Shown here one piece after another: positions 22,949 through 60,039 of a DNA stretch of 64,000 nucleotides. The number at the start of each line of letters is the position of its first letter. Within the stretch, counting starts at the first letter, position 1. Below the pieces are notes generated by a model. It had not been told where the DNA came from and ran no database searches. It saw nothing but the letters and a program-made list of their open reading frames with translations. Position numbers and translations under genes: made by a program. This DNA is from a virus (lineage: Duplodnaviria > Heunggongvirae > Uroviricota > Caudoviricetes): IMG/VR virus record IMGVR_UViG_2799112923_000001; one strand, 5' to 3'.

Positions 22949-23335
22949 ATGGTTACAGAAGGACTAGAACGATTTAATAAAATCGTAGATATTTGTGGAT
23001 TGTATGTTCCCGAAGAGGGAAAGAAAATTCTACAGGACCCAGAACGAATGAAGAATGAAGCCGTTTGTGCGTATGTGAACGAAGAAGCATTCACGAATAA
23101 CGCAGGCTATATCATTTCTGTAATTGACGAATGTGTTTACGCATGTTTGGAAACTGTGGAAGATTTAAAGACCCGTGGTGGTTTTACCAAAGAATTTTGT
23201 TTTAACGGTTGTTTCCCTGCGTGGACTTATACCGATGAAATGCTCATTGAACATATTGGTGACCTGTGTGTAGAATATAAGAAACACGCATCCAATAAGG
23301 CTCTCAAATCTTTGCAGGAAGATTTTGACGATTAA
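22949..23335 (+). CDS. Hypothetical protein, DF-tail family
   Basis: Own promoter and RBS; ends KALKSLQEDFDD. Confidence 0.7.
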   Translation: MVTEGLERFNKIVDICGLYVPEEGKKILQDPERMKNEAVCAYVNEEAFTNNAGYIISVIDECVYACLETVEDLKTRGGFTKEFCFNGCFPAWTYTDEMLIEHIGDLCVEYKKHASNKALKSLQEDFDD

Positions 23336-23427
23336 ATGTAAAAATCTTTTTACAAAGTGAACCATTGACAAAACAAAAATTAAAAACTAAAATTGGAAAC
23401 ATTCACAACAAACAAAGAGGTACAAAA

Positions 23428-23643
23428 ATGAAGAAATTTAAGATTACTAACACTGCCACCAATGAAACCCGTGAATTTGGTGTGCCCGATAATGCTACTG
23501 ACCAGGAATACGATGCCATGAAGGAAATCGTTATCGCAGGTCTTCAGGGCAATAACGAAATTGGTAATATCAAGATTGAATTGATTGACGCTCCTGACGA
23601 AATCAAGGAACGATATATTATCAACCCGGATTGTGATGGTTAG
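23428..23643 (+). CDS. Hypothetical protein
   Basis: GAGGT RBS after promoter. Confidence 0.65.
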   Translation: MKKFKITNTATNETREFGVPDNATDQEYDAMKEIVIAGLQGNNEIGNIKIELIDAPDEIKERYIINPDCDG

Positions 23644-23762
23644 TTTGTAAAAATCATTTTACAAAATTACCCATTGACAAAACGAAAAACAAAATCTAAA
23701 ATTTCACTTGTGATTTTTAACTAATATCAACTAACCATAAACAAAAAGGAAAAAAATAAATT

Positions 23763-24971
23763 ATGGATATTGCAACTCTCAAATCAGTACTCGCAGCAAC
23801 TCCTTCCACTCACACCATTATGTTGAAGGGCCCTCATGGTATCGGTAAGACCGAAGTCATTCGTTGGCTCGCAAAGAATGTATGGCATCAGGATTGTGTG
23901 GAATTCCAGGCATCCCAGATCTCCGACGTGGGTGACTTGATTGGTCTGCCACGCATCAATTCCGAAACCGGTGAAACCGAGTTCGTTCCTCCATATTGGT
24001 ATAAGAAGGACGAAAATGGTAATCCACTTCCCGTCACTCTTTTCCTTGACGAAATCAACCGTGGTACTACCCTCGTCACCAATGCTATGATGCAGCTTGG
24101 CCTTGACCATCGCATTTTGAATTTCAAGCTGGCTCCAGGTTCGCACGTCATTTGTGCTATCAATCCGGGTGACGATGGCAATTATGATGTTGAAGAATTT
24201 GACCCGGCAAAGATGGACCGTTTCGTGGTCTATAACTTTACCCCAACTGTTCAGGAATGGCTTGATTGGGCTACTGAGTCTGGCGTGAACTCCGTTGTAA
24301 CTGGCTACATCTCCCAGTACTCCGGCGACCTTGACCCATACTCCAATGCCGCAGCTAGTAAGACTGCTAGCAAGAGCTTTGATGGTATTCTTCCATCCCG
24401 CCGTACGTGGACTCATTTCGCTGCGTTCCTTGATATGGCATCCGAAAAGGGATTGTTTGATGGCAATAAGGGTTTGGGTATTCTCCAGGAATCTTGTGCC
24501 GGTTATGTGGGGCAGGCTATCGCAGCCAAATTCAAGACCTACTATGCTCAGCATGGTACTGGTATGGATGCTAAGGCTCTAATGGAATCCAAGAACTTTG
24601 AAAAGGATTTCGGAAAGAAGGTAGAAGGTCTTTGTAAGAAATCCAAGATTGAAGCGGTCCAGTTGGGTCAGTCTGTCTGCCAGTATCTCCATGAACAGGA
24701 AGGCAAGATGGGCACTCCTGATAATCCAACGGAATTGGCTCACAAGTATGCTGACAATTTCTACTATTTCTTGACTCACCTGCAGAAAGAAATTCAGGTA
24801 GAAGTTTACACCAACGCAGTCGCTACGGCTCGTGAACGCAAGCAGAAGTGGACTAAACTCATTGGAAAATCTTGCACCATCAAGGTGAAGGACGAAAAGA
24901 GCGGCGAACAGGTTAATGCTCTCAATGCTCTCTACATTTCCATTGTTCGTATTCAGAACGAATTTAACTAA
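23763..24971 (+). CDS. MoxR-like AAA+ ATPase
   Basis: Walker A GPHGIGKT, DLIGLP, Walker B LFLDEINR, AINP, DPA..DRF. Confidence 0.9.
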   Translation: MDIATLKSVLAATPSTHTIMLKGPHGIGKTEVIRWLAKNVWHQDCVEFQASQISDVGDLIGLPRINSETGETEFVPPYWYKKDENGNPLPVTLFLDEINRGTTLVTNAMMQLGLDHRILNFKLAPGSHVICAINPGDDGNYDVEEFDPAKMDRFVVYNFTPTVQEWLDWATESGVNSVVTGYISQYSGDLDPYSNAAASKTASKSFDGILPSRRTWTHFAAFLDMASEKGLFDGNKGLGILQESCAGYVGQAIAAKFKTYYAQHGTGMDAKALMESKNFEKDFGKKVEGLCKKSKIEAVQLGQSVCQYLHEQEGKMGTPDNPTELAHKYADNFYYFLTHLQKEIQVEVYTNAVATARERKQKWTKLIGKSCTIKVKDEKSGEQVNALNALYISIVRIQNEFN

Positions 24972-25173
24972 TTTCTTTATGGTGGTTGAGGGTGGTTTTC
25001 TCTCAAATGGGAAAACCACCTTTTTTCTTCCAAAACTTCGCAGTGACGAAGTAAGAATTAGTTAAATCGTTCTTTTGTTAATTTTATTTTACATAACTTG
25101 GGTTGACAACAATTAACAATTTTACTAAATTATCGTTAGATTGATAAACAATGCTATATAAGAGGTACAAATT

Positions 25174-26769: not shown

Positions 26770-27228
26770 ATGGCAGTTGATAAAATAATTCAATGTTGCG
26801 AAAAAGCAATTAGAAATGGAACTAATCTCAAAGAACTATATACCAAATTTAAAGCATTGGTTGATGTGAATGGTGGGATTTTCTATTCACTTCAAATTAA
26901 GGGTAATTTACAGAATTCTCCAAATTTGTATGCTATTATAAAATTCAAAGAAGAAAATGATGGTTCTCGTTTAACTATTAATTCCCTTGATAAGTGTACG
27001 AAGTTTAAGTTCCAATATCTACCATCAGATTGGACATGTGAAAACAATCAGTTCTATCATCTATATGATATTGAAAGGGAAATAGAAAATTTAACAAAGA
27101 AGGGTTTAACATTTGAACAATTCAAAATGTTCTATTTGGGTTTAAATCGTGATTTGACCTGTTGCGAATTTTCCAAAGTGATTAAGCAACTGATTGCTCA
27201 GTTTAAACTACAAAAGGATTTCAAATAA
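26770..27228 (+). CDS. Hypothetical protein, DF-tail family
   Basis: Ends FKLQKDFK. Confidence 0.7.
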   Translation: MAVDKIIQCCEKAIRNGTNLKELYTKFKALVDVNGGIFYSLQIKGNLQNSPNLYAIIKFKEENDGSRLTINSLDKCTKFKFQYLPSDWTCENNQFYHLYDIEREIENLTKKGLTFEQFKMFYLGLNRDLTCCEFSKVIKQLIAQFKLQKDFK

Positions 27229-27744: not shown

Positions 27745-27819
27745 GGCCCTATCGTCTAGTTTTGGTTAGGACACAAGAATTTCACTCTTGAAACACCAGT
27801 TCAAATCTGGTTGGGGCTA
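27745..27819 (+). tRNA. tRNA-Glu(TTC)
   Basis: CAAGA-ATTTCAC-TCTTG anticodon arm. Confidence 0.85.
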
Positions 27820-27834
27820 CTAACAAACTAATAT

Positions 27835-27907
27835 GGTACTGTAGAATACTTGGTTAGTTCGCTGCCCTTTCAAGGCGGAAAAGAGAGTTCAAATCTCTCC
27901 AGTACTA
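27835..27907 (+). tRNA. tRNA-Glu(TTC)
   Basis: CTGCC-CTTTCAA-GGCGG. Confidence 0.9.
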
Positions 27908-27920
27908 CTAACAAATTAAT

Positions 27921-27994
27921 GGGTGTGTGGTGAAGTGGTTTAACACACCGGTCTGTCTAACCGGCATACGCGGGTCCGAATCCCGCCATACTCG
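27921..27994 (+). tRNA. tRNA-Asp(GTC)
   Basis: CCGGT-CTGTCTA-ACCGG. Confidence 0.9.
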
Positions 27995-28006
27995 CTAAAA
28001 CATTTT

Positions 28007-28080
28007 GGTTTCGTGGTGAAGTGGTCTAACACATTGGTCTGTCTAACCAACATTCGTGGGTTCAAATCCCACCGGAATCG
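28007..28080 (+). tRNA. tRNA-Asp(GTC)
   Basis: TTGGT-CTGTCTA-ACCAA. Confidence 0.9.
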
Positions 28081-28090
28081 TACAAATTAT

Positions 28091-28166
28091 GGGCTTGTAG
28101 TTCAGTCTTTGGTAGAACGCCGCACTTGCACTGCGGAGGTCATGGGTTCAAATCCCTTCAGGTCCA
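28091..28166 (+). tRNA. tRNA-Ala(TGC)
   Basis: CCGCA-CTTGCAC-TGCGG, G3:U70. Confidence 0.9.
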
Positions 28167-28181
28167 CTACATACAAATTAT

Positions 28182-28254
28182 TCCACCTTAGATCAGTTGG
28201 TAGATCAGGGCACTGTTAATGCCTTAGTCCCAGGTCCGAGTCCTGGAGGTGGAG
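28182..28254 (+). tRNA. tRNA-Asn(GTT)
   Basis: GGGCA-CTGTTAA-TGCCT. Confidence 0.9.
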
Positions 28255-28308
28255 CGAAAACAAAAAATGGTGGTAATCCACTGGTGCTGGAAGCACCTTA
28301 AAAACTTG

Positions 28309-28382
28309 GCCCTCTAATCCAAATCCAGTGATTGGACCGGACTGAAAATCCGAGAAGCTGCGGGCGGCACGCAGAGTGGGCA
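28309..28382 (+). tRNA. tRNA-Phe(GAA), atypical D and T loops
   Basis: CGGA-CTGAAAA-TCCG; T arm CTGCG-GGCGGCA-CGCAG. Confidence 0.7.
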
Positions 28383-28394
28383 CGAACAAATTAT

Positions 28395-28467
28395 TCCGGT
28401 ATAACTCAACTGGTAGAGTGTTTCCTTCATACGGAAAAAGTTGTAGGTTCAAATCCTACTACCGGGA
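28395..28467 (+). tRNA. tRNA-Met/Ile2(CAT)
   Basis: TTTCC-TTCATAC-GGAAA. Confidence 0.85.
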
Positions 28468-28479
28468 CTAACAAATTAA

Positions 28480-28555
28480 CTCTCCTTCGCCTAGCTGGTT
28501 TATGGCACCTGTCTTACAAACAGGAACAACCTTGGTTCAAATCCAAGAGGGGAGA
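28480..28555 (+). tRNA. tRNA-Val(TAC)
   Basis: CCTGT-CTTACAA-ACAGG. Confidence 0.85.
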
Positions 28556-28558
28556 TAC

Positions 28559-28629
28559 TGCCCATTGGTGTAATGGTAACACGGCTCGCTCTGACCGAGC
28601 AATCAGTAGTCCGAATCTATTATGGGCAA
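28559..28629 (+). tRNA. tRNA-Gln(CTG)
   Basis: GCTCG-CTCTGAC-CGAGC. Confidence 0.85.
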
Positions 28630-28641
28630 CGAACAAATTAT

Positions 28642-28718
28642 CGGCAACTATCTCCTCGCTCTGATAAGGCGTTGAAAGAGTAAATGGTTACATGTAGGTT
28701 CAATCCCTATGTTGCCGA
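28642..28718 (+). tRNA. Rearranged tRNA-Ile(GAT)-like RNA
   Basis: Acceptor CGGCAAC/GTTGCCG, CGCT-CTGATAA-GGCG arm, T arm present, no D arm in normal position. Confidence 0.6.
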
Positions 28719-28722
28719 CTAT

Positions 28723-28796
28723 CGCCCGGTGACGGAACTGGCATACGTGTCTGCCTTAGAAGCAGAATTTTGAGAGTTCAAATCTCTCCTGGGCGA
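28723..28796 (+). tRNA. tRNA-Leu(TAG), short variable loop
   Basis: TCTGC-CTTAGAA-GCAGA. Confidence 0.85.
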
Positions 28797-28808
28797 CTAA
28801 ACATTTTT

Positions 28809-28893
28809 GGAGGTGTGGCAGAGCGGCTTATTGCGTCGGTCCTGAAAACCGAAGATGGTAAAACATCCGTGGGTTCAAATCCTACCACCTCTT
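28809..28893 (+). tRNA. tRNA-Ser(TGA)
   Basis: TCGGT-CCTGAAA-ACCGA, long variable arm. Confidence 0.85.
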
Positions 28894-28901
28894 CTACTTA
28901 T

Positions 28902-28974
28902 ACTCTCGTAGGCTAACTGGATAAACCACTGGACTACGAATCCGGCATTGAAGGTTCAAATCCTTCCGAGAGTA
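28902..28974 (+). tRNA. tRNA-Arg(ACG)
   Basis: CTGGA-CTACGAA-TCCGG. Confidence 0.9.
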
Positions 28975-28988
28975 CGAACAAATTATTT

Positions 28989-29062
28989 GTGGCTATATCA
29001 TAGTCTGGTTAATGAGCCTGTTTACCAAACAGGTTACCTGGGTTCAAATCCCAGTAGCCACT
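28989..29062 (+). tRNA. tRNA-Gly(ACC)
   Basis: CCTGT-TTACCAA-ACAGG, U73. Confidence 0.8.
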
Positions 29063-29070
29063 TACCAAAT

Positions 29071-29159
29071 GCTTATGTGACCCGAGTCTGGCGAAGGGGG
29101 CGGTCTGCAAAACCGTTGTGTTTACAGCACCATCGTTGGTTCAAATCCAATCATAAGCT
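29071..29159 (+). tRNA. tRNA-Cys(GCA), long variable arm
   Basis: GCGGT-CTGCAAA-ACCGT, U73. Confidence 0.85.
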
Positions 29160-29163
29160 CTAT

Positions 29164-29234
29164 ATCTCATTGGTGTAACGGCAGCATGGCTGGTTCCAAC
29201 CCAGTTGGTGGGGGTTCAAATCCTTCATGAGGTG
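29164..29234 (+). tRNA. tRNA-Trp(CCA)
   Basis: GCTGG-TTCCAAC-CCAGT, G73. Confidence 0.85.
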
Positions 29235-29247
29235 CGAAAGTAAATAA

Positions 29248-29319
29248 GTCCTATTGGTGTAGCTGGAAACATGGCAGTCTTCCAAACTGGTGTCGCGGGT
29301 CCGAACCCCGCATAGGGCT
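29248..29319 (+). tRNA. tRNA-Gly(TCC)
   Basis: CAGT-CTTCCAA-ACTG, U73. Confidence 0.85.
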
Positions 29320-29338
29320 CTACAAACAAACTATCATC

Positions 29339-29412
29339 TCCGTATTAGTGTTAATTGGTTAGCACGCAAGTTTGTGGCACTTGTAGTCTGAGTTCAAATC
29401 TCAGATATGGAA
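29339..29412 (+). tRNA. tRNA-His(GTG), lacking G-1/C73
   Basis: CAAGT-TTGTGGC-ACTTG. Confidence 0.8.
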
Positions 29413-29415
29413 TAT

Positions 29416-29487
29416 ATCTCCGTATGTCAATGGTTAGACGAGCAGACTCTTAATCTGTGGATCTGGGTCCGAATCCCAGCGGGGGTA
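29416..29487 (+). tRNA. tRNA-Lys(CTT)
   Basis: GCAGA-CTCTTAA-TCTGT. Confidence 0.9.
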
Positions 29488-29501
29488 CGAACAAATTAAA
29501 T

Positions 29502-30745: not shown

Positions 30746-30985
30746 ATGATTGGATTGATTATTTCTTTTATATTGTTTGGTGTTATCGTTTGGGGCTGTA
30801 TTGCCCGACAACATTCAACTACTAGACTTGTTCTTTCTTACATTCAAGAAGGTTTGGCTGTGGCTATGGCATTTATTCAGGTCGGCTGGGGCAACTATTT
30901 CTGTTGTTTGTGCGATGTTGCTATCGCAGGTCTAGCCATTTATTACATTCTCAAACAACATAATCCAAGTTCGGAAAGGAGATAA
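30746..30985 (+). CDS. Small 3-TM membrane protein
   Basis: Three hydrophobic segments, AAGGAG RBS. Confidence 0.7.
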   Translation: MIGLIISFILFGVIVWGCIARQHSTTRLVLSYIQEGLAVAMAFIQVGWGNYFCCLCDVAIAGLAIYYILKQHNPSSERR

Positions 30986-30987
30986 AT

Positions 30988-31230
30988 ATGATGATTACCA
31001 TTTTGACTATTATTTTGCTAACACTAATTTTCACCGAATTTTTTCTCTTTAAGAAGAAAGAAGCTCGTTATTGGATAAATCTGGTAGAAGTAATAATCGC
31101 AACATTTTTGAGTGGTTATTATTTCCACGAAAATGATATTTTGGGAACTGTGTGTAATTTTGTGGTTAGTCTGATGGCAATATGTTATGTTATCTGTTAT
31201 ACGATATGCGGGGAAGATGATGTCCATTGA
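30988..31230 (+). CDS. Small 3-TM membrane protein
   Basis: Three hydrophobic segments, AGGAG RBS. Confidence 0.65.
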   Translation: MMITILTIILLTLIFTEFFLFKKKEARYWINLVEVIIATFLSGYYFHENDILGTVCNFVVSLMAICYVICYTICGEDDVH

Positions 31231-31456
31231 GTGTTTCTTTTCAGTACTTAATTTAGTTCTATTTGGTGTTATTTTATCCAAATTCTTCTTTATTAAGAAC
31301 TATCCTGTACTTGTAAGTTTTTGTGTAGCCCAACTTATATTGTCAGCTATCATTATGGTTTATGATGTAGCAGTTAATAATTTGTTTGGTGCGATTTTAG
31401 ATTTGGTTGTTTTAATGCTGGCTATCTTTGAAATACAAACTATAAAGGAGAAATAA
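31217..31456 (+). CDS. Small 3-TM membrane protein
   Basis: Three hydrophobic segments. Confidence 0.6.
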   Translation: MMSIECFFSVLNLVLFGVILSKFFFIKNYPVLVSFCVAQLILSAIIMVYDVAVNNLFGAILDLVVLMLAIFEIQTIKEK

Positions 31457-31671
31457 TGCTCAACTTGCCGGGACCATTTCCACCACCAGTCATTCCACCA
31501 GTTTATTATATCCCAGATGAAGATGATGTAGATTTTCCCAGTTGGAAGGATGCTTCCATTGGGATGAAAATCTATCTTTGCTTTTTATATGGTTTACTCG
31601 GTTTAGCCGGTATTGGAACTTTACTTTTAATTTGTTTAACTATTAAAGTTGTTATTGAAACATTTAACTAA
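31456..31671 (+). CDS. Small membrane protein
   Basis: Pro-rich N-terminus, acidic patch, C-terminal TM. Confidence 0.65.
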   Translation: MLNLPGPFPPPVIPPVYYIPDEDDVDFPSWKDASIGMKIYLCFLYGLLGLAGIGTLLLICLTIKVVIETFN

Positions 31672-31680
31672 GGAGAACTT

Positions 31681-34633: not shown

Positions 34634-35125
34634 ATGGGTCTGTATAACAAACTATCAAAGATTGAACAACTGATTGAAGCGAACACAAAGATTTCTTATT
34701 GGGCCTGGACAGAAGGTTGGATTTCTGTTGAACAGCTCCCTGATAAGATGCGTGAATGTATGATTCAGTTTGGTTACAAGAAAGACGCTCCACTTTTCGG
34801 TGTTCATGTTCGCTCTCCAGGAAAAAATAATGGTGGTGATACAACTGTTTACGATTTGATTTACATTTCGCCTGGTAAAGATGATAATGCTAAGTGGACC
34901 GATTTGCTCTATAAAGATGTTGATAGGGACTGGCGTTATACTGTTATGTTCAACCACAATAACAATATGACTGAAGAATTGAAAAAAGAAAATGATGGTA
35001 AACTAGAAAAATGTTATAATACATTAAGCAAACTGTTTGCTTTCCTTAACATTTACATTCGCCATCGTGAAGAACTTGTTCAGTTGGTAAACATTGAATA
35101 CGATCAGTTGGAAGATTTAAAATGA
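34634..35125 (+). CDS. Hypothetical protein, paralog of 35888 ORF
   Basis: AGGAG RBS; MG.Y.K..KI...P...RE..  ..G.K...F...Y.L...SP shared. Confidence 0.7.
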   Translation: MGLYNKLSKIEQLIEANTKISYWAWTEGWISVEQLPDKMRECMIQFGYKKDAPLFGVHVRSPGKNNGGDTTVYDLIYISPGKDDNAKWTDLLYKDVDRDWRYTVMFNHNNNMTEELKKENDGKLEKCYNTLSKLFAFLNIYIRHREELVQLVNIEYDQLEDLK

Positions 35126-35511
35126 AACCTTGGAATAGTGCATACAGAAATAATGTGAAAGAAATTTTAACATGGATAAAGAATAAACAATTATTCCCAA
35201 ATGTTTATCTTGAAGGATATTCAAACGAATGGATTGGATGCGACATTATCTGTAAAATAGGTGCTAGTCATCATATTGTGATCTGGTGTTGTACGGGTGA
35301 ATATACACATGACCGAAAGTCAAGACCATTTTATGTTATTCGTTATGAAAAGAACAATGAATGTAACAGATATGAAGTATTTAATTTAAAACAGATTTAC
35401 AAATTCTTTGAACTATCCAAAGATATTGGTTATAAGAATGCTGGTGAATATATTGACAAACAAACTAAATTAATAAATGAACAATTAAAAATTTCAAAGG
35501 ATTTTGAATGA
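35122..35511 (+). CDS. Hypothetical protein, DF-tail family
   Basis: Ends QLKISKDFE. Confidence 0.7.
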   Translation: MKPWNSAYRNNVKEILTWIKNKQLFPNVYLEGYSNEWIGCDIICKIGASHHIVIWCCTGEYTHDRKSRPFYVIRYEKNNECNRYEVFNLKQIYKFFELSKDIGYKNAGEYIDKQTKLINEQLKISKDFE

Positions 35512-35888
35512 AACCTTCAGTCAGTGCTATAAAAGAGAACATAAAATTTGTTCGTGATTTTATGGATAAAGAAAATATCAAATATGATATTACATTCCAA
35601 CATCCAACCAGTTTTATGTGTGAAGTGCGAGGATATTCAGTAACTTTTTGTGTTCACATTGAATTAGAGAAGTATTTTGAAATTCGGAATTCAAAAATAA
35701 AATACAGAATTGGAAGGTGGTGCGGGTGTCCAGGACCATTTTTTGAGTTCACCACAAACAGAAGATGGGAAAGTACATATTTTTTACGAACAATAAAACA
35801 TCTCGGCATAGAAGAAGGTGTTAAGTTTTTTGAGAAATTATCTAAACGAAAAGAGATGATTTCAGCAATAAAAGAGGATTTTGAATAA
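35508..35888 (+). CDS. Hypothetical protein, DF-tail family
   Basis: Ends ISAIKEDFE. Confidence 0.7.
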   Translation: MKPSVSAIKENIKFVRDFMDKENIKYDITFQHPTSFMCEVRGYSVTFCVHIELEKYFEIRNSKIKYRIGRWCGCPGPFFEFTTNRRWESTYFLRTIKHLGIEEGVKFFEKLSKRKEMISAIKEDFE

Positions 35889-36409
35889 TGTTAGAAACAA
35901 TTAAGAGGGCATTTAATATGGGAATTTATGGAAAAATTCAAAAGATAACAGACTGGTTAGACCAAAAATATAACATTACTAACTGTTGGGTAAATTTTTC
36001 ATACACAGTTAAGAATTTTCCAAAAGACTTTAGGGAGACGTGTTATTATATTGGACTAAAAGATGCGGACACCATTTTTGCCATTAATTACAAATTCACA
36101 AATGGAAAACAGTATACATTGGTCGCATTATCCCCACCAATGGATGAAAAATGTAAGACTGACGATTATAGTGTAATTTTTAAGCGAAACTATTGGCAGT
36201 TCCAAAGTAGATGGTTTGAAACATTTGATGAAAATCTTTATATAAAAGAAAAGAATCCCCATAAGCAGGTGGAAGAACAGATTGAAAATATCTTTATTCA
36301 TTTACAGAATTTTTGCCAAACCATAGAATTACTGACAAAACAGCTCAAAGCCATGCCCACATTACAGAAAATTGAAACAGATTTCACGAAAACAACGGAA
36401 GAAGTGTAA
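35888..36409 (+). CDS. Hypothetical protein, DF-tail family
   Basis: LQKIETDF near C-terminus. Confidence 0.7.
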   Translation: MLETIKRAFNMGIYGKIQKITDWLDQKYNITNCWVNFSYTVKNFPKDFRETCYYIGLKDADTIFAINYKFTNGKQYTLVALSPPMDEKCKTDDYSVIFKRNYWQFQSRWFETFDENLYIKEKNPHKQVEEQIENIFIHLQNFCQTIELLTKQLKAMPTLQKIETDFTKTTEEV

Positions 36410-49150: not shown

Positions 49151-49717
49151 ATGGATTATAAACAATCTATCGGTGCCGTTGTTAGGCATTTTTACGAACA
49201 CCATACTGATGTATGGTGTTTTTGTCCTGGTTTCCCTAATAATTACAAAGAAATGAAGTTATCCGAATTTGGTGAAACTGATGAAGAAATTGCGAACAAG
49301 ATAATAGACCAGTTACATGAAACTAAACTAGAATTTGAAATGTTCAGTTCCGACAACAGTCATCCAGGTGGTTCATTTTATGGGCCGTCATTGTATATTG
49401 AAAATGGTTATACTCCATTCCCAGATGGTGGAAAACCTAAATGGATTACTGGTACATTGAAAATGATACAACAAGTTCCAATGTTAAGGTATTATGGTGA
49501 TGATAAACGAATTTTCCAGTTAGGAAGTAAACCTGTAAATTTTTATTTCACACAACAGTTTAAAGGGCAAAACGATTTTGATAATTATTTGAAGTATTTG
49601 AAGAAAACAGAAGAAATAATCAAACACAACAAAGAATATCAAGATAGATTTGAAATTGATAAGAAATATGTAAAAGCCCAAGACCTGGAACAAGCAATTC
49701 AAACTGATTTTGATTAA
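49151..49717 (+). CDS. Hypothetical protein, DF-tail family
   Basis: Ends LEQAIQTDFD. Confidence 0.75.
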   Translation: MDYKQSIGAVVRHFYEHHTDVWCFCPGFPNNYKEMKLSEFGETDEEIANKIIDQLHETKLEFEMFSSDNSHPGGSFYGPSLYIENGYTPFPDGGKPKWITGTLKMIQQVPMLRYYGDDKRIFQLGSKPVNFYFTQQFKGQNDFDNYLKYLKKTEEIIKHNKEYQDRFEIDKKYVKAQDLEQAIQTDFD

Positions 49718-50166: not shown

Positions 50167-50193
50167 TCACATTTAATACAAAGGAAAAACAAG

Positions 50194-50349: not shown

Positions 50350-50357
50350 CTACAGTT

Positions 50358-50440: not shown

Positions 50441-50457
50441 TTAATTGAGAACAAACT

Positions 50458-51252: not shown

Positions 51253-51337
51253 ACAAAAATTTACACAGTTTTATGAAAATCCTATTGACAATCAATAGGA
51301 TTTTTTCTATATTATATGGTATAAAAGAGAGGTAACT

Positions 51338-52184: not shown

Positions 52185-52334
52185 ATGGTAAATGCTTATT
52201 TGGGTATCTTTCTTAAAGATGGTGAACGAAAGACTGTAAAGTATTTGGCAGATGATATTGAAACTGCTGAAAAAGAATTAAAAGAAATCGCAACAACACA
52301 GGGTTCTATCCTGGAAGATGTTATGGAGGTCTAA
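52185..52334 (+). CDS. Small hypothetical protein (49 aa; not in ORF track)
   Basis: AAGGA RBS, TAATG overlap with next gene. Confidence 0.6.
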   Translation: MVNAYLGIFLKDGERKTVKYLADDIETAEKELKEIATTQGSILEDVMEV

Positions 52335-52753
52335 TGATTTTAATAACTAAGTCCGAAATTGACGAATTGTGTGCTTGCTATAATCTCACAATGACTAACA
52401 ACAAACCATTTAATACATTGGTAGGGTTTGCTGTTCCTGACGATGAACATTTCTATCTCGTTATCTCACACCCAGCATTACAAAATGATAAGGAAGAAGT
52501 TGTGTGTTTGAATAAAACATATAATAATTGCTATCGGGTAACTCGTTTGTTTGATAAATTTGAAGAAAAAGACGATTATGGCCGAGACACACGAACTTTA
52601 GGACCGAGAGAAAGAAACATTTTTAGACAAACTCTATTTTCTTACACAGAATTAAAGCTTCGCCTAAACAAATTGAGTGGTGAACTTAATGATTATGTTC
52701 GCAATAAAGTAACGAACAAGAATTTAGCAGAAATTAACAGTGATTTTGAATAA
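52334..52753 (+). CDS. Hypothetical protein, DF-tail family
   Basis: Ends LAEINSDFE. Confidence 0.75.
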   Translation: MILITKSEIDELCACYNLTMTNNKPFNTLVGFAVPDDEHFYLVISHPALQNDKEEVVCLNKTYNNCYRVTRLFDKFEEKDDYGRDTRTLGPRERNIFRQTLFSYTELKLRLNKLSGELNDYVRNKVTNKNLAEINSDFE

Positions 52754-52767
52754 AGGAGAAATAAACT

Positions 52768-53718
52768 ATGGCAGTTAAAACTATTCACACATTTAAGCAG
52801 TTATGCGAACGTATCATTATGAATGGTCCTGAAGACCAGAACTATTACAGTGATGAAGCACAACCAGATGTAGTTTACATTTCAAAGGAACTCAATGATG
52901 GAGCGAATGACATTAAGTTGTGGTATTCTGTAACCGGCAACGGTCGCCCAGTATATCTCGGGTACACTGGTTTGTGTTATTTCCCAAATGGCTCTCTCGT
53001 TGTGGATGATGTAAAGCCAACGATTAAGCCAAAGCCACAGTGGGATTATCCAATGAGCCATAAGCAAATTTTGGATTTGGCAAATTCTCGTTTGGCTAAG
53101 TATGGTTTATCAATGGAAAATTTCAGTTCCCAGTGGAATGATAAACATAAGAACTCAAAGATTTTAAAGTTGGAAAAGATTCCTGGTTGTAAGAAACGAT
53201 TCTGCTATGACCAGCCCCGATATTGTTCTGTTTGTAGCATTTCTTATGAAACTTCACCAAAGCAGGTTTTCTTTGGTTGTAATCTTGACGATGTGGATAG
53301 TGATTTTATGAAAGAAGGCAGACTGCAAGCTTCTTCTACCTATATCAAGATTCCATTGGCATTTAGACTAATTGAAGAAGATTACGCAATCTACTATGAC
53401 AACAATAAGGACCACGAATGGAAGAAGTATGGTTCTGTTGCGTATAATTTGGATTTGGTAGTTTGTAGAACACCTGAAGAAATCAATGCTTGGTTTGACA
53501 AGTTTGACGCATATTATTCTCGTCTCCAGGAACAGGCAAAGATTACATCCGAAGTATTTGATTATGTTAAGACTAATGGTAAACCATATAAGGACATTAT
53601 GAAAACATATACAAAGCGAACTCAGCAATACAAGGATGCTCGTAAGAACTACGAAGATATGATTTTAGGACAAATTAAGAGAATTACAGCTCTTGACAAA
53701 ATTAACAATGACTTCTAA
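52768..53718 (+). CDS. Hypothetical protein, DF-tail family; paralog of 53734 ORF
   Basis: Shared LAN.RLAK...KRFCY...DSDFM.EG.LQASSTYIK.PLAF...QIKRITA.D.INNDF. Confidence 0.8.
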   Translation: MAVKTIHTFKQLCERIIMNGPEDQNYYSDEAQPDVVYISKELNDGANDIKLWYSVTGNGRPVYLGYTGLCYFPNGSLVVDDVKPTIKPKPQWDYPMSHKQILDLANSRLAKYGLSMENFSSQWNDKHKNSKILKLEKIPGCKKRFCYDQPRYCSVCSISYETSPKQVFFGCNLDDVDSDFMKEGRLQASSTYIKIPLAFRLIEEDYAIYYDNNKDHEWKKYGSVAYNLDLVVCRTPEEINAWFDKFDAYYSRLQEQAKITSEVFDYVKTNGKPYKDIMKTYTKRTQQYKDARKNYEDMILGQIKRITALDKINNDF

Positions 53719-53733
53719 AAGGAGAATAAACTA

Positions 53734-54492
53734 TTGCCAGCAAGTAATACTATTCAACAGCTCATTCAGCTCGCACAGTCTTTCCAAAATTCTATCACAT
53801 CGGGTCAACCAGTCAATCTCAACCAGGTCTTTGGGTCACCTAGCCAGCAGAAAACATTCAATATGAACATCGCAGACATTGAAGCTCTCGCTAATGCTCG
53901 TCTAGCAAAGAATAGTTTGGCTCTCAAGTCCTATCACGAAGACCCAGATTGGGATTTCAAGTGTGTTAAGGGAGAGGATATTCCAAATTTCACAAAGAGA
54001 TTCTGTTATTTCCGAGAAGGCTTTGCTGGAGAATGTTTGTGTGGTCTTTCTATGCAATCGGGTAAGCCAGCTCTCATTTGTGCTGACATTAATGACATTG
54101 ATAGTGATTTTATGAGCGAAGGTAATCTCCAGGCCTCATCTACCTATATCAAACACCCTCTAGCATTTCATTTGTTTAGATTTGGTGACCTGATGCATTT
54201 TGACCAGGGCTTGTGTTTTGGTGTTCCTGTAGAAGTTCTCGCCACTGAAGACGAAATTAACGCATGGTTTGATAAGTTTGATTCTATCTATCCTCGTCTC
54301 CAGGCTCAAAATACTATGGTTGCCGAGGTCTATAAGAATGTTAAAGAACTTGGTAAGCCATACAAAGATATTATGAAAACTTATCAAAAGCGAACAAATG
54401 AATACAAGGAAGCCCGTAAGAACTATGAAGAAATGATTTTAAATCAAATCAAGCGAATTACGGCTGTGGACCAGATTAACAACGATTTCTAA
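53734..54492 (+). CDS. Hypothetical protein, DF-tail family; paralog of 52768 ORF
   Basis: TTG start after AAGGAG; ends AVDQINNDF. Confidence 0.8.
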   Translation: MPASNTIQQLIQLAQSFQNSITSGQPVNLNQVFGSPSQQKTFNMNIADIEALANARLAKNSLALKSYHEDPDWDFKCVKGEDIPNFTKRFCYFREGFAGECLCGLSMQSGKPALICADINDIDSDFMSEGNLQASSTYIKHPLAFHLFRFGDLMHFDQGLCFGVPVEVLATEDEINAWFDKFDSIYPRLQAQNTMVAEVYKNVKELGKPYKDIMKTYQKRTNEYKEARKNYEEMILNQIKRITAVDQINNDF

Positions 54493-54505
54493 GGAGAAAC
54501 TTATT

Positions 54506-54940
54506 ATGGCATATTCTGTTGGTGATTTTAAGAAAATGATGAAAGATGCGTATAAAACCGCATTTGGTTATCGCGGTGCCACCGGTTTTAATATCTATCG
54601 CAGATATGCCGGTAATAAGTTCCGTTATTGTAGTGAATGTGAAGTTAACGAACTAAATGCTCCAGGTGGTTTCACTCATTGGATTCCTAAGGCTAATCCC
54701 ACAGATCCAAAGAAAGTAAAATACATTGGTTTTTGGTTCGGTGTGTATATTACAGATGCTACCGGAACTAGAATGGATTTACATTATATTCATTTTATGT
54801 ACGAAGATACTACTATCCTTGGTGTATGTTATGAAGATTTTGATAATCCACAAACACAGCTTCAAATTAATAGTGGTATCACACCTACCACAACTCCAAT
54901 GAATGTTCAGTTAAACGATTTCATACAGGCTTTTAAGTAA
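54506..54940 (+). CDS. Hypothetical protein
   Basis: AAGGAG RBS. Confidence 0.7.
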   Translation: MAYSVGDFKKMMKDAYKTAFGYRGATGFNIYRRYAGNKFRYCSECEVNELNAPGGFTHWIPKANPTDPKKVKYIGFWFGVYITDATGTRMDLHYIHFMYEDTTILGVCYEDFDNPQTQLQINSGITPTTTPMNVQLNDFIQAFK

Positions 54941-55245
54941 TGAACTTATTCCAAATTAAAAATCTACTAGAGAAAGACGCAGATCTAATTAAGACCTTGG
55001 ATAGCAATTCAAGTTTCCGATTTGATTGCAAACTAGAATATGAATACCAGGGACATGGTATTCTCTCAGTAGATGGTGGTTGGGTTCAGGTTGCCGGTCT
55101 AAACATTTATATGGAATATCTCAGTAAGAAAGACCTTCTTTCTAGGATAGAGATAGGAAAAGAGAGAATCCGTAATCTTATTAGAGAGAATAAAGAAAGA
55201 CTTGTTGAAATTCATTTAAAACAAATGAATATGGATTTTGAATGA
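54940..55245 (+). CDS. Hypothetical protein, DF-tail family
   Basis: Ends LKQMNMDFE. Confidence 0.7.
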   Translation: MNLFQIKNLLEKDADLIKTLDSNSSFRFDCKLEYEYQGHGILSVDGGWVQVAGLNIYMEYLSKKDLLSRIEIGKERIRNLIRENKERLVEIHLKQMNMDFE

Positions 55246-55562
55246 TTTTTGAACATATTGCTGATATAGAAAAATTGTTAAAGAAATATGGATTTTCTTT
55301 GAACCGATACCATGATTCTGTAATCACTCGTTGGAATTTGTATTATAATAATTCCGGCGGAAGTATTGCTGAGTTATGGAAGAATAATAAATTGGGTCAG
55401 TATAAAATACGATATGAACAGAGTGCAGGAAATGTGCCAGCATATTCTATGGAATTATGCGATGATGAAAAATTTGAACAGTATCTAATAGATTATATTA
55501 GAGAAAGAAAAGAAGCCAATGTAAGAATTAAATTATCCGATATAAAAAAGGATTTTGAATGA
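55242..55562 (+). CDS. Hypothetical protein, DF-tail family
   Basis: Ends LSDIKKDFE. Confidence 0.7.
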   Translation: MIFEHIADIEKLLKKYGFSLNRYHDSVITRWNLYYNNSGGSIAELWKNNKLGQYKIRYEQSAGNVPAYSMELCDDEKFEQYLIDYIRERKEANVRIKLSDIKKDFE

Positions 55563-55846
55563 CTTTTGAAAGATTTAAAGAAATGGTAAAACAAGACCCT
55601 ACAATTATTGTAGTTATAGATACACCTAAAAAATTTGTTTGTAACTACAATGAGAGAGAATTGTTATCTTCTAATGGTGCAGTTGTTCTCTCGTTTAATA
55701 TGAATATGCGTTATGAGTATATGAGTGAAGAAATGGCTAAGTTCGTTATCCAAAATGGTAAAGATTATGTTAATCATTATATTAAATGGGATAAAGAACT
55801 TAGAGAAACTGAAAGATTAGAAGAAATACAGAAGGATTTTGTATGA
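55559..55846 (+). CDS. Hypothetical protein, DF-tail family
   Basis: Ends LEEIQKDFV. Confidence 0.7.
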   Translation: MTFERFKEMVKQDPTIIVVIDTPKKFVCNYNERELLSSNGAVVLSFNMNMRYEYMSEEMAKFVIQNGKDYVNHYIKWDKELRETERLEEIQKDFV

Positions 55847-56154
55847 TTACTCTTGACCGAATTAGAGAACTATGTTTACAGTTTGGTTATAAACCATTTG
55901 ATAGAGAACCAAACGAATACCATATTGGAGAGTCTTCAGTATTTAAAGTATTACCAAATGAAACTAGCAAAAATGTAGTTTACTGGGACACGATGTATAC
56001 TTTGGGTACAAGATACTCTAATACAGATTTGACTGAAGAAAAAGTAATTGAAATGATTAAAGAAAATCTAAAATGTGTTCAAAAACACGAAGAAATGAGA
56101 AAGAAAAAATTAGAACACAGAATGTTGAGCAGTATTCAAGAGGATTTTAGATGA
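55843..56154 (+). CDS. Hypothetical protein, DF-tail family
   Basis: Ends LSSIQEDFR. Confidence 0.7.
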   Translation: MITLDRIRELCLQFGYKPFDREPNEYHIGESSVFKVLPNETSKNVVYWDTMYTLGTRYSNTDLTEEKVIEMIKENLKCVQKHEEMRKKKLEHRMLSSIQEDFR

Positions 56155-56552
56155 TTACTTTGTGCCAAATTAAAGCATTACAGAGAGAATTTGATTTAAC
56201 CTATACTGAAGAATTTGGCTATATCACTATAGGCTCTAAACATCCAGCATGGGAACTAAAGCATGGGCAAATGGCATTAGCACAGTTCTCTTATTGGGAA
56301 TGTGAAAAACAATACAATTTAATCTATCTCGCTGCCGTAATTCACAAAACACCGAATGAATTTATTCTATTACCCGCTGGCTATGATAAAGATGGAACAA
56401 ATGTTGCCTCTATCCATGCTCCACCTCTCTCTTACGAACAACTGCGTATTCACCTTAAATCTCTCCTTGAAGATTTTGATTATCTCTCCCTCTATAAGAA
56501 ACAACTAAAATTACAACAAAATATCTCTAATATCTCTCATGATTTTAAATAA
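56151..56552 (+). CDS. Hypothetical protein, DF-tail family
   Basis: Ends ISNISHDFK. Confidence 0.7.
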   Translation: MITLCQIKALQREFDLTYTEEFGYITIGSKHPAWELKHGQMALAQFSYWECEKQYNLIYLAAVIHKTPNEFILLPAGYDKDGTNVASIHAPPLSYEQLRIHLKSLLEDFDYLSLYKKQLKLQQNISNISHDFK

Positions 56553-56868
56553 AGACTCTCTCATACAATTATTAACCCAAAATGGGTGTGAGTATTGCTC
56601 CTGCCCACCTTCTCTCACTTACAAAGATTATAGATTTCTATCCTTTAATCATTGGTTTTATGATACAGATACAGATTTTAGATTACATACACATCTAACT
56701 AAAACACTCATGACTAATCATGGGTTAAGATGTAAGTATACAAATACCTCTCCTGAATTTATTCTCTATCATTTAGAGAAATTCAAAATGTGGGTAGATA
56801 GGCTCTCTCTCAAAGAAAAACAAGAAAAACTTACTAATATGATTGGCAAAATTCAAGAGGACTTCTAA
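56539..56868 (+). CDS. Hypothetical protein, DF-tail family
   Basis: Ends IGKIQEDF. Confidence 0.7.
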   Translation: MILNKDSLIQLLTQNGCEYCSCPPSLTYKDYRFLSFNHWFYDTDTDFRLHTHLTKTLMTNHGLRCKYTNTSPEFILYHLEKFKMWVDRLSLKEKQEKLTNMIGKIQEDF

Positions 56869-57323
56869 TGAACTTAACTTTGGAAGAAATAGAACATATT
56901 TGTAGTAGATATAATCTACAGTTTATCCAAACAAGTCCAACAGAACATCAATTATTTCTTCGCTCTGATATATTTGGGGCATATTCTTATCCTGAATTGG
57001 GAGGTTATATCTTACCTGTAGCCGATTTTAAAATGACCGCCGACATCCATTCCAAATATGCTCTATACAATACTTATAATGCTTTTCTTATGAGAGACTT
57101 CCAAACAATACCACCTTATATCTGTTTATTCCGAGCCATCACACCCGCTGAAAAATCTCATGGTGATATTATCTTTCTTAATACCCAATTCACTTATATC
57201 CCAGATTCTATACAGTTTATGAATTATATCCATTGGATATTAGATACTATCCCGGAAGCATCCAAATATCTCAAACAATATAAACAAAATAAACTTTTTG
57301 AACAAATACAAAAGGATTTTTAA
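56868..57323 (+). CDS. Hypothetical protein, DF-tail family
   Basis: Ends FEQIQKDF. Confidence 0.7.
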   Translation: MNLTLEEIEHICSRYNLQFIQTSPTEHQLFLRSDIFGAYSYPELGGYILPVADFKMTADIHSKYALYNTYNAFLMRDFQTIPPYICLFRAITPAEKSHGDIIFLNTQFTYIPDSIQFMNYIHWILDTIPEASKYLKQYKQNKLFEQIQKDF

Positions 57324-57658
57324 TGCTTATCCCTTATTCTAAATTAGAGAATGTAAGAACTTTGTTCACGAATTTAGGTATTAAAGATACCAATTATGGT
57401 GTATTTGAAGAATTTTATATCTCCCGCCCACACTTGGCTAATTTAGTAATAGCCGAATTACATAAAGATGTTCCCGGCTTCGCTATCTTACTCTTTAAAA
57501 TCTATATCAAAGATAATAACCTGTATAATGATAGAAATGATAGAATCCTAATAGATAATATCCCAGATCTAATCTCTACCCTTGACAATTATTCTTTAAT
57601 TCTTAAACAATACGAACAAATACTAGAAATTAAAAAGATTAAGAAGGATTTCCTATGA
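57323..57658 (+). CDS. Hypothetical protein, DF-tail family
   Basis: Ends IKKIKKDFL. Confidence 0.7.
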   Translation: MLIPYSKLENVRTLFTNLGIKDTNYGVFEEFYISRPHLANLVIAELHKDVPGFAILLFKIYIKDNNLYNDRNDRILIDNIPDLISTLDNYSLILKQYEQILEIKKIKKDFL

Positions 57659-58035
57659 ATCGTTATAGATTAAAAGACATTTATTCTCTATGTGGTCTTT
57701 TTCCTAATGACTTCAAGGTTTATAAAAACTCTACCTCTTATGGTATTACATCTCTCAAACTGAACACTATTATTATAGCATTTCAACAAGTATCTAATAC
57801 ACGATATGAAATTCATGCTATAACAAACTGTTTTATGTTTTCTAATGGTGGTATCGCACCTTGTGATTCTAATAGAATGGTATCCGATATATTTACTGAC
57901 TATGTGTTTAAGAATGTACCAAACAAATTATCCGATTATTTAAGATATTTTCGTGATAATTTCCAATATGTAGAAAAAGCATATAAAGAATACTTATATG
58001 CCAAAAAACTAAACAATATATCTGAGGATTTTTAA
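57655..58035 (+). CDS. Hypothetical protein, DF-tail family
   Basis: Ends LNNISEDF. Confidence 0.7.
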   Translation: MNRYRLKDIYSLCGLFPNDFKVYKNSTSYGITSLKLNTIIIAFQQVSNTRYEIHAITNCFMFSNGGIAPCDSNRMVSDIFTDYVFKNVPNKLSDYLRYFRDNFQYVEKAYKEYLYAKKLNNISEDF

Positions 58036-58205
58036 TAAGAATGAAATTATCCCTATATGGTATTTATTAGCAAAAAACTGTGGTGAAACCACGAAATTTG
58101 CTATTGAACCAGTGTTTGACCCACTTTGCACGGTTTGTTGCAGTAAATAAAAAAATTTTTTGAAAAAAGAATATATTTACAAGTAAAGGATAAATTTATA
58201 TATTA

Positions 58206-58679
58206 TTGGCTATGGCAAAGTTATTAGGAATACAGTATTTGGATTATGATATAGCCAATAAGTATGTTGACATGTACAACAACATCGTAAAGGCTAATCA
58301 GGATTTTGAAAGTGAAAAGAAGGAAATAGAATTAGATTCATTTTGTAGCATTTACAATAAGTTTAGTAAGGAATGGAGTGATTTAATTTATTTAATCAGT
58401 TATGAAGAAGATGGTGAATATCATAATTTAATCAGTTATGTAGATAATGATGATGGATATAGAAGTTATGTAAAAACCATAGAATTAGCAGGATTAGGTC
58501 AACCATTATTAAAGCAGTTTGAATATGATGTAGATATATCAAGATATGTAAGTGGACAAAATGAAATAAATTATGATATTTTGATACAGTATGAGGGTAA
58601 GAATATATTTGAATGTTACACAGATAACAGTGATAATTATTATCCAGTAGGGAATATAGAATATCATGGATTTCAATAA
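58206..58679 (+). CDS. Hypothetical protein
   Basis: 157-aa acidic ORF. Confidence 0.65.
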   Translation: MAMAKLLGIQYLDYDIANKYVDMYNNIVKANQDFESEKKEIELDSFCSIYNKFSKEWSDLIYLISYEEDGEYHNLISYVDNDDGYRSYVKTIELAGLGQPLLKQFEYDVDISRYVSGQNEINYDILIQYEGKNIFECYTDNSDNYYPVGNIEYHGFQ

Positions 58680-58974
58680 TTTAATAGAAAAAGAACAGTT
58701 ATTGTATGCTCAAGGGTTTTATTATTTTGAGAAGGGTAGTCCATTAATCATGTATGAAAACTGCAATCAGTTTATGATATATGTTCGTCGGCATATACAA
58801 CTACTAGAAAATAATAAGATTGGTGATGGTGATTTTGATATAATGTTCAGGGAATCCGCAGATTTAGAACAACGAATACAAGCATTACGAATAGAATGGA
58901 ATAATATAGTATTATACTTTAAACAACTAAAAATGGAAAAACAACTACAACAACTGGAGAAAGATTTTGAATAA
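58666..58974 (+). CDS. Hypothetical protein, DF-tail family
   Basis: Ends LQQLEKDFE. Confidence 0.7.
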   Translation: MDFNNLIEKEQLLYAQGFYYFEKGSPLIMYENCNQFMIYVRRHIQLLENNKIGDGDFDIMFRESADLEQRIQALRIEWNNIVLYFKQLKMEKQLQQLEKDFE

Positions 58975-59482
58975 ATACGGATTAGATATATCAAACACCA
59001 AAAAGACAGTAATGGATAATATAGCCAAGATTGAAGCAGTTAATGCAGATTTTAATAAAATTGAAAATCCATTTACTAAAACTTCATTATTCATAGAAGG
59101 TAGCCTTGGTATGAATGGTAAGATTGATGGAAGACCCAAGGTATATTCCGAATTGATTATTAGGGATTTTAGTTATAAGTTACACATGAGATTTATATTC
59201 CGATACAGTTTAGCAAGAAAGAATTGGAAGTTTGGTGATTTTGAAATAAATTATAGTAGAAATTGGTGGAATGAAAAGCCAGGAGATGAACAATATAGGG
59301 CATTATGGCAAAAGGTTAAAGATTTTGATTTTGAAGGATTATTTAAGAAAAAGAATTTAGAAGAATGTTGGAATATATTGGCTGAATGTATTACCGGTGT
59401 GAATGGTGAAGAAGAATTAAGTCTATTCTATAAAAATCTTATAAATGTTAGTGCCACAGATAAAATCAAAGGAGATTTCTAA
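58967..59482 (+). CDS. Hypothetical protein, DF-tail family
   Basis: Ends TDKIKGDF. Confidence 0.7.
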   Translation: MNKYGLDISNTKKTVMDNIAKIEAVNADFNKIENPFTKTSLFIEGSLGMNGKIDGRPKVYSELIIRDFSYKLHMRFIFRYSLARKNWKFGDFEINYSRNWWNEKPGDEQYRALWQKVKDFDFEGLFKKKNLEECWNILAECITGVNGEEELSLFYKNLINVSATDKIKGDF

Positions 59483-60039
59483 TGACTTGGGATGACGCAG
59501 TAGAAGCATTTGCCAAATATGATATAGATATTAAAAAATATCGTAATGGTAAATTGAAATTCAAGGATATTAAACTCACAAAGCAGTATTTTAAGAGAAG
59601 ACCGGAATATCCAGTATTTGAGTATAATGAAGCCACTTATAATGGAACATTAACCAAGAATAATTTTTATATTGATTATAACACAAATGCTAAGGGTGAT
59701 TTCTTATATTATCAACCAGCAGATTTTGGTGACTTATCAGATTGGGAAATGGATGATTTTTTGAAGTCAAAGGGTAATCCTACACGATATTTTAGAACAT
59801 GGCATGGAAAGAAGATTGCTATAAATGGAAAAGAACAATTAGAATGGGCTTTGAAGGATTTCTTTAATAGATTGGAAGTTATGAATAAACTGACTACAAA
59901 TGAAGATTTGTTGCAGATTAAGAAGGATTTCCAAGAACAGACTAATGAATTAGAAAGAATTACCCAGAACATAAAGAATTTAAAGACTAAATACAAACAT
60001 ATATTTAAAACACAAGCCGGTATAAATGCCGATTTTTAA
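59482..60039 (+). CDS. Hypothetical protein, DF-tail family
   Basis: Ends QAGINADF. Confidence 0.7.
   Translation: MTWDDAVEAFAKYDIDIKKYRNGKLKFKDIKLTKQYFKRRPEYPVFEYNEATYNGTLTKNNFYIDYNTNAKGDFLYYQPADFGDLSDWEMDDFLKSKGNPTRYFRTWHGKKIAINGKEQLEWALKDFFNRLEVMNKLTTNEDLLQIKKDFQEQTNELERITQNIKNLKTKYKHIFKTQAGINADF

Follow-up and report, generated by a model that had tools for sequence, protein, structure and literature searches.

A lineage-specific and probably hyperdiverged family of small proteins with a shared C-terminal helix ending in Asp-Phe in large uncultured phages

Viruses of eukaryotes include multigene families in which a constant module is joined to a variable binding part, such as the US22/SUKH proteins of herpesviruses and the ankyrin-PRANC proteins of poxviruses. 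Among giant phages, Bacillus phage G carries about 35 zinc-ribbon copies, a lineage-specific expansion of small proteins (PMC7824862). Shared endings are represented by the clamp-binding motifs of phage T4, hydrophobic-acidic peptides on variable flexible linkers that are interchangeable among gp43, gp33 and gp55 (PMC2988020), and by the C-terminal tip of SSB (D-D-D-I-P-F). Here we analysed a stretch of 64,000 nucleotides of an uncultured tailed phage, IMG/VR record IMGVR_UViG_2799112923_000001 (the window), in which many small proteins end in a helix with a terminal Asp-Phe (DF). They belong to an undescribed, lineage-specific family that makes up about 20% of the window genes. We consider it probable that this is a lineage-specific arms-race family, in which a variable head is combined with a constant C-terminal helix ending in DF.

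This family resembles each of the described systems only in part. As in the expansions of phage G, US22 and PRANC, we see tandem, fast-diverging paralogs with a conserved framework and variable surfaces, and a role in host interaction or conflict is presumed; unlike in those expansions, what stays constant is one helix with Asp-Phe at its end, the share of the genes is much higher, and no sequence or significant fold match to them was obtained. With the T4 clamp epitopes the DF tail has in common that a short conserved motif lies at the extreme C-terminus of several different proteins in a phage with gp55-type late transcription, that hydrophobic residues are combined with an acidic one, and that the motif may become internal. 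However, the T4 motif is hydrophobic and acidic and is carried on a flexible linker, whereas the DF tip, with its L, I/M, F and one Asp, is rich in Lys/Arg and forms the end of a long K-rich helix in which conservation extends back 34 residues. The initial annotation had compared the ending with the SSB tip. In both, a C-terminal Phe is preceded by Asp, but in SSB an acidic tip is attached through a disordered linker, whereas the DF tail is basic, K-rich and continuously helical; moreover, SSB offers the tip of one protein to many partners, while here many proteins share one ending. The analogy was therefore given up.

The same annotation had listed 21 open reading frames (ORFs) with the tail. 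All of them were found at their starts and encode 95-316 amino acids; 20 have a terminal DF, whereas the ORF starting at 35888 is doubtful. In the 20 ORFs the stop codon follows DF directly (nine), after one further residue (ten) or after two (one), and the pattern h-x-x-[ILM]-x-x precedes DF. A simple non-overlapping set of 102 ORFs was used as the denominator for the window. DF was found within the last four residues in 20 of the 102, compared with 1.15 expected from the internal DF frequency, and the terminal pattern [LIMVF]xx[LIMV]xxDF was observed 15 times against an expectation of 0.43 (Poisson p = 1.4e-18). The C-terminal excess thus goes beyond expectation, and coupling between adjacent genes accounts only for the residue after Phe and for a G before GAT. 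Two close relatives in IMG/VR, G001 (109 kb) and G002 (105 kb), whose MoxR-like ATPase is 91% identical to that of the window, have DF endings in 32/166 and 34/155 ORFs, respectively. In the distant relative G003 there is one in 169 ORFs, which is the chance level. The shared DF ending is genuine, and selection maintains it at the level of the protein.

A different origin of the ending would be translational coupling, with AAG GAT TTT GAA TGA serving as the Shine-Dalgarno (SD) sequence plus overlapping start of the next gene and the peptide motif being incidental. Coupling statistics were collected for 86 tail genes of three phages (the window, G001 and G002). Junctions in which the DNA doubles as SD sequence and overlapping start do occur (AAGGATTTTGAATGA), as had been proposed, and 44 of the 86 tail genes overlap the next start. 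An extra residue after Phe was present in 30/44 overlapped junctions compared with 8/29 free-standing genes, and a G before GAT, giving GGAT, in 24/44 compared with 6/29. Since DFx and GGAT are enriched only in overlapped junctions, the influence of coupling is confined to the last codon and a wobble base, and the peptide is what is kept. DF persists in the 29 of 86 tail genes that have no start within 25 nucleotides downstream, and such free-standing genes have AAGGAG-type sites after the stop. The D-F codon pairs GAT-TTT, GAT-TTC, GAC-TTC and GAC-TTT are all in use (39, 17, 20 and 10 genes, respectively), at frequencies near the genome usage (GAT 70%, TTT 62%). In addition, conservation can be followed upstream for at least 15 residues, as far as an invariant Lys and well past any ribosome-binding site. 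A coupling-only signal was rejected, as conservation is not confined to the DNA that serves the SD sequence and start of the next gene, and we give an incidental peptide motif almost no credence. The earlier proposals that DF is kept with varied codons and where no gene follows, and that selection acts on the peptide and not on the SD/ATGA junction, both stand.

To describe the tail, 103 distinct sequences were aligned without gaps and anchored on the final Phe. Lys occupies the position 15 residues before this Phe in 98 of the 103 tails; K/R is found 8 residues before it in 86, L/I 7 residues before in 78, Lys 5 residues before in 50, and I/M/L 4 residues before in 101, followed by Asp and Phe at the end. 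The tip can be written as K-x6-[KR]-[LI]-x-K-[IML]-x-x-D-F. Upstream of it, hydrophobic positions recur at heptad-like intervals as far as about 34 residues before the final Phe. At the invariant Lys the hydrophobic seam of the helix is displaced by two residues, so that the face made up of L, I/M and F in the last 12 residues may point elsewhere than the hydrophobic face of the preceding part. After Phe there are none, one or two residues, and 3-9 in a few relatives. Since the motif tolerates 1 to 9 residues behind it, Phe need not carry a free carboxylate. This tolerance also argues against recognition of the PDZ or HbYX type.

MinD and FtsA are anchored to the membrane by C-terminal helices. 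A K-rich amphipathic helix could in principle anchor the DF proteins on the inner membrane in a similar way, and the small hydrophobic face of the tip, its flanking Lys/Arg and its aromatic end fit such a role. Membrane-targeting helices are, however, degenerate in sequence, whereas here Asp, Phe and the distant Lys hardly vary; the last 12 residues include no more than three hydrophobic positions, and the tip is continuous with a structured helix of 30 residues. Membrane targeting therefore seems most improbable.

The proteins had been described as otherwise unrelated apart from their tails. It is true that the N-terminal domains are mostly dissimilar and that the tail is the constant part: when 22 C-terminal residues were trimmed from a set of 87 DF-ending proteins, about 55 phmmer clusters remained, and iterative searches with hidden Markov models (HMMs) started from single trimmed heads (E 1e-3) did not join the clusters. 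Nevertheless, a common domain is indicated by weak-hit statistics, by conserved head columns and by a cross-validated head-only HMM. After removal of 35 or 45 C-terminal residues, 74-79% of the weak phmmer hits (E 1e-3 to 0.1) of tail-bearing queries fell on tail-bearing proteins, compared with a background of 34-36%, and the alignments covered most of the head. In a MAFFT alignment of 80 members (A2) the N-terminal helix reads h-x-E-L-h-x-x-[YF]-G, and a further column has F/Y in 52 of 55 sequences. One Tyr column is occupied in 72 of 73 sequences, a second contains 68 Tyr and 8 Phe among 77, and the Lys column is filled in 75 of 80, besides the invariant Asp-Phe.

The head-only HMM was trained on G001 and G002 heads lacking the last 35 residues and run on the equally trimmed window proteome. 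Its top seven matches were all tail proteins, as were 11 of the top 12, and the 14 window members without an ortholog in the training phages tended to score above 49 other, size-matched ORFs (Mann-Whitney p = 2e-5). Most members thus share a head architecture and conserved residues, and a profile made from other phages recognises them, so that the description as unrelated proteins does not hold. It is very probable that they are hyperdiverged paralogs of a single family, in which the last helix closes with DF, and not a set of unrelated domains with a portable tag.

Structure models of two members were made with AlphaFold2 on family alignments. The model of 55242-55562 has a helix at residues 6-15, five strands between residues 20 and 56, a low-confidence linker and a helix at 75-105 (mean predicted local distance difference test score, pLDDT, 69); that of 55843-56154 has helices at 4-13 and 46-58 and a long helix at 65-101 (mean pLDDT 71; 83-93 by block over the long helix, but poor in the middle of the protein). 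In both models the C-terminal helix is continuous, 31-37 residues long, with a block pLDDT of 82-93 over most of its length. Foldseek searches with both models against PDB, and with the 55242 model against BFVD, gave nothing better than E 0.02. In a wide VIA-align search, the 55242 model matched two-layer sandwiches at Z 3.8-6.3, below the 7-8 typical of chance best hits; the matches included the TriTu immunity protein (7zhm_D, Z 5.4), YgaC (Z 5.0), frataxins (Z about 4), type III secretion chaperones and PsiB. A two-layer sandwich is thus no more than a suggested fold class. Small sandwich binders of this kind (7zhm_D, YgaC 2g7j, frataxin/CyaY, type III chaperones and PsiB), several of which are inhibitors or chaperones, have the same order of elements as the DF model, but the Z of 3.8-5.4 is within the range of unrelated models, there is no sequence similarity, and the DF C-terminal helix is much longer. 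The matches to alpha-beta-alpha sandwiches mostly stop 6-18 residues before the C-terminus.

Such a fold could also explain the ending by structure alone. The helix and DF would then be the last core element: Phe and I/L would pack against the sheet that carries the two Tyr, Asp and Lys would serve as caps, and the members would act independently and have no shared partner. This agrees with the head residues (the two Tyr and [YF]G) being about as conserved as the tail, with the arrangement of the weak fold matches, in which N- and C-terminal helices pack on the sheet, and with the tolerance for extensions after Phe. On the other hand, a helix of 31-37 residues exceeds the cover of a five-strand sheet, the seam shifts register at the invariant Lys, and five near-invariant tip positions at 10-20% overall identity are unusually strict for a core helix. 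A purely structural role is accordingly a rather doubtful explanation.

A further reading, to which we give about the same limited weight, is a docking handle: a constant tip through which every member attaches to one hub, the members being interchangeable adaptors or inhibitors. The hub might be the phage sliding clamp, a host or phage AAA+ machine or protease, or some other host hub. No other part of the proteins is as conserved as the tip; the face formed by L, I/M and F after the register shift need not share a packing surface with the rest of the helix, and the sandwich matches mostly end before it. Larger proteins with unrecognised heads also retain the ending down to 40% identity: the 52768/53734 pair (250-316 amino acids) has its own homolog family, in which 27 of 27 database relatives (40-95% identity) end in DF or DFNx. 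The gp55-type late transcription of this phage points in the same direction, given the C-terminal clamp-binding motifs used by T4 (PMC2988020). Against docking stand the composition of the tail, a continuous K-rich helix and not an acidic-hydrophobic peptide on a flexible linker, and the dispensable carboxylate. In addition, the conserved Tyr, Lys, Asp and Phe could be a mere folding core, and the hub was not found in this analysis.

The gp55-like late sigma factor is encoded at 15742-16281 on the minus strand (phrog_234 profile, E = 1.9e-5). The C-terminus of this homolog is G-[IL]-N-K-F-V-E in the window, G001 and G002 and G-L-A-R-F-L-E in G003; it lacks the DF motif, which also speaks against a docking handle of the form h-x-x-D-F. 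The DNA polymerase B and gp45 Pfam models gave no match in five related contigs, which are fragments, and gp33, gp43 and gp45 were not found in the DNA examined. As a separate observation, the C-terminus of the gp55 homolog is itself a candidate clamp-binding epitope of the lineage. Also in G003, at least four neighbouring proteins of 210-250 amino acids at 108353-115617 (L052:8353-15617) end in [KRNM]-G-L-x; these may represent an analogous array with a constant ending of another kind.

The initial annotation had also named the phage MoxR/vWA machine as a possible hub. A MoxR-like ATPase gene does lie at 23763-24971, with a family member (22949..23335) just upstream. G003 retains a MoxR (41% identity) while only the single ORF mentioned above ends in DF there, so MoxR is kept in a relative without the family and is an unlikely hub. 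A common docking partner for the tip is possible. That the tip is a universal handle for a hundred or more interchangeable early heads on one hub (clamp, host AAA+ or protease) is a tentative idea to which we give the smaller chance; if true, this phage would have an equivalent of the F-box or PRANC adaptor repertoires that eukaryotic viruses carry.

The distribution of the family was examined in several databases. Pfam-A and PHROG scans of the 20 window members and the 80 aligned members gave scattered sub-threshold hits, with no family recurring in more than two members. The best match of the family profile to PDB sequences had E = 0.054, matches in the ESM Atlas were unnamed viral clusters only, megablast of the array and tblastn of an ortholog found no match among GenBank phages, and IMG/VR scans with 52768, P0022 and P0011 gave no relatives. 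When the family profile was run against 1.84 billion cluster representatives, 24 hits aligned end to end at E < 1e-3, and all 24 end in DF. A word-seeded search of 5.8 billion proteins similarly gave 99 hits at E up to 1, all of which end in DF plus 0-8 residues; none of the 99 has a Pfam domain or an informative name, and one carries an evidently spurious JGI label. Longer fused forms (330-2000 amino acids) were sought and none was found, which is weak evidence. Metagenomic contigs of up to 416 kb carry family members, and homologs of 52768 also occur on contigs up to this size.

Turnover of the array is so fast that phages with a 91% identical MoxR share almost no array members: 12 of the 15 members in the window have no G001 hit at 1e-5, and the three that do (52768, 53734 and 59482) are only 31-42% identical. 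Outside the array, the few members that are conserved have identities of 28-67%. Between G001 and G002 the median identity of family orthologs is 88% compared with 94% for other genes, and within these orthologs the last 16 residues are 88% identical compared with 82% for the heads.

Loading into the capsid had been suggested as one use of the tail. Strong sigma70-like promoters were found at 48897, 49755, 51285, 58176, 60261 and 62200. The one at 51285..51313 on the plus strand (TTGACA-17-TATATT, 11/12) lies upstream of the array at 52.3-60.0 kb, and just past the array a terminator-like hairpin (60253..60289, plus strand) overlaps a perfect TTGACA-17-TATAAT promoter. The T4-type late motif TATAAATA occurs seven times in the window. 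Six copies precede structural genes at 1.7-20.5 kb and the seventh, at 49764, is upstream of 49844-50065 and outside the arrays; none of the seven lies inside the DF arrays. With sigma70-like promoters ahead of the arrays and no TATAAATA within them, the family looks early, and by this promoter inference capsid loading is disfavoured. We also noticed that hairpins at 51275-51313 and 60253-60289 (plus strand) contain the -35 TTGACA in their stems, so that a terminator and the next promoter overlap at both array ends.

As we picture it, the DF helix would be the constant C-terminal element of a single family of small proteins (about 90-190 amino acids) that has undergone massive amplification and hyperdivergence. 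Each member would start with a short N-terminal helix ending in [YF]G, continue with an antiparallel beta meander bearing two near-invariant Tyr and a variable linker, and finish with an amphipathic helix of 31-37 residues bearing the DF tip. The protein would end where the helix ends, one residue being added where the next gene overlaps (ATGA). The genes lie close together in translationally coupled arrays, with sigma70-like (early-type) promoters ahead of them. Their products may be a set of early binders that serves host takeover or counter-defence, with the variable sheet and loops giving specificity and the constant helix providing a common framework. Whether the conserved tip also forms a shared interface, with one partner or by self-association, seems to us evenly balanced.

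Several points weigh against the arms-race reading. No partner, function or host emerged. Because a DF ending was the criterion for choosing members, there is some circularity in finding DF invariant in the alignments, and only 3-4 members with a variant tail were found by profile. The head-only profile misses six or seven tail proteins of the window (49151, 52768, 53734, 54940, 56151, 57323 and 58666); these may have other or too-diverged heads, leaving room for a portable module. Both AlphaFold models are moderate (pLDDT 69-71), and the sheet region of the 55843 model is below 50. Members with altered ends, identified by profile, were G001 10474-10818, G002 55376-55720 and G002 59129-59449 (all on the minus strand); the altered ends comprise DF with a nine-residue acidic extension and, in one case, D-D-C replacing D-F.

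In stretches of 64-110 kb of a 0.3-0.4 Mb lineage, about one gene in five belongs to this single family, with near-complete turnover between close relatives. This speaks for a large and evolvable set of tools for taking over the host early or countering its defences, and the framework of Tyr, Tyr, Lys and Asp-Phe provides a simple signature for finding members. Should the tip indeed dock on one hub, phage early proteins would be seen to follow a new principle of organisation.

All listed members of the window are on the plus strand. Ahead of the MoxR gene, 22949..23335 encodes 128 amino acids ending in DFDD and has orthologs in G001 and G002 (67% identity; head-only HMM E = 2.5e-7). The protein of 26770..27228 (152 amino acids, DFK) has no close downstream gene start, and its orthologs are 28-29% identical. 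Two members are adjacent at 35122..35511 (129 amino acids, DFE; the stop overlaps the next start) and 35508..35888 (126 amino acids, DFE). They are followed by the doubtful member 35888..36409 (173 amino acids), in which DF lies nine residues before the end and the family profile gives E = 0.49. The tail-bearing protein of 49151..49717 (188 amino acids, DFD) has no gene after it, and its head is missed by the head-only profile.

The near-continuous array reported at 52.3-60.0 kb was confirmed; it consists of 15 tail genes at 52334-60039 and is broken only by two tail-less ORFs. Its first gene, 52334..52753 (139 amino acids, DFE), is followed by the larger tail-bearing protein 52768..53718 (316 amino acids, DF), which the family profile misses, and its paralog 53734..54492 (252 amino acids, DF; E = 9e-48). 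After the first tail-less ORF (54506-54940, plus strand, 144 amino acids, with L-N-D-F six residues from the end) come 54940..55245 (101 amino acids, DFE, overlapped start), 55242..55562 (106 amino acids, DFE, one of the AlphaFold targets; head-only E = 4e-4), 55559..55846 (95 amino acids, DFV), 55843..56154 (103 amino acids, DFR, the other AlphaFold target) and 56151..56552 (133 amino acids, DFK), which has many metagenomic orthologs, all with a DF[EK] end. The next four members are 56539..56868 (109 amino acids, DF), 56868..57323 (151 amino acids, DF), 57323..57658 (111 amino acids, DFL) and 57655..58035 (126 amino acids, DF). The second tail-less ORF, 58206-58679 (plus strand, 157 amino acids), has weak homologs (30% identity) that adjoin family members in G001 and G002. 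The array closes with 58666..58974 (102 amino acids, DFE), whose metagenomic ortholog P0015 keeps the tail, 58967..59482 (171 amino acids, DF) and 59482..60039 (185 amino acids, DF), which has an ortholog of 31% identity in a related contig.

The window is a piece of a large novel uncultured phage with a genome of about 0.3-0.4 Mb and has no nucleotide match among GenBank phages. CheckV completeness of G001 and G002 is only 31-32%, and at 109 and 105 kb this corresponds to a genome of about 0.33 Mb. Tail, baseplate-hub, head-closure and terminase-like genes are present in the window, and the structural genes are syntenic with those of G001 at 50-97% identity. In the distant relatives G003-G005 the MoxR is 36-41% identical. 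Five consecutive ORFs of 71-89 amino acids at 30746-31920 (plus strand) have strongly hydrophobic, Cys-rich C-terminal halves and could encode small membrane proteins; they have no G001 or G002 homolog at 1e-5. ARAGORN identified 32 transfer RNA genes in two clusters, at 27745-29488 and 44120-50441, and the anticodons it called include Gly(ACC), Val(AAC) and Ser(ACT).

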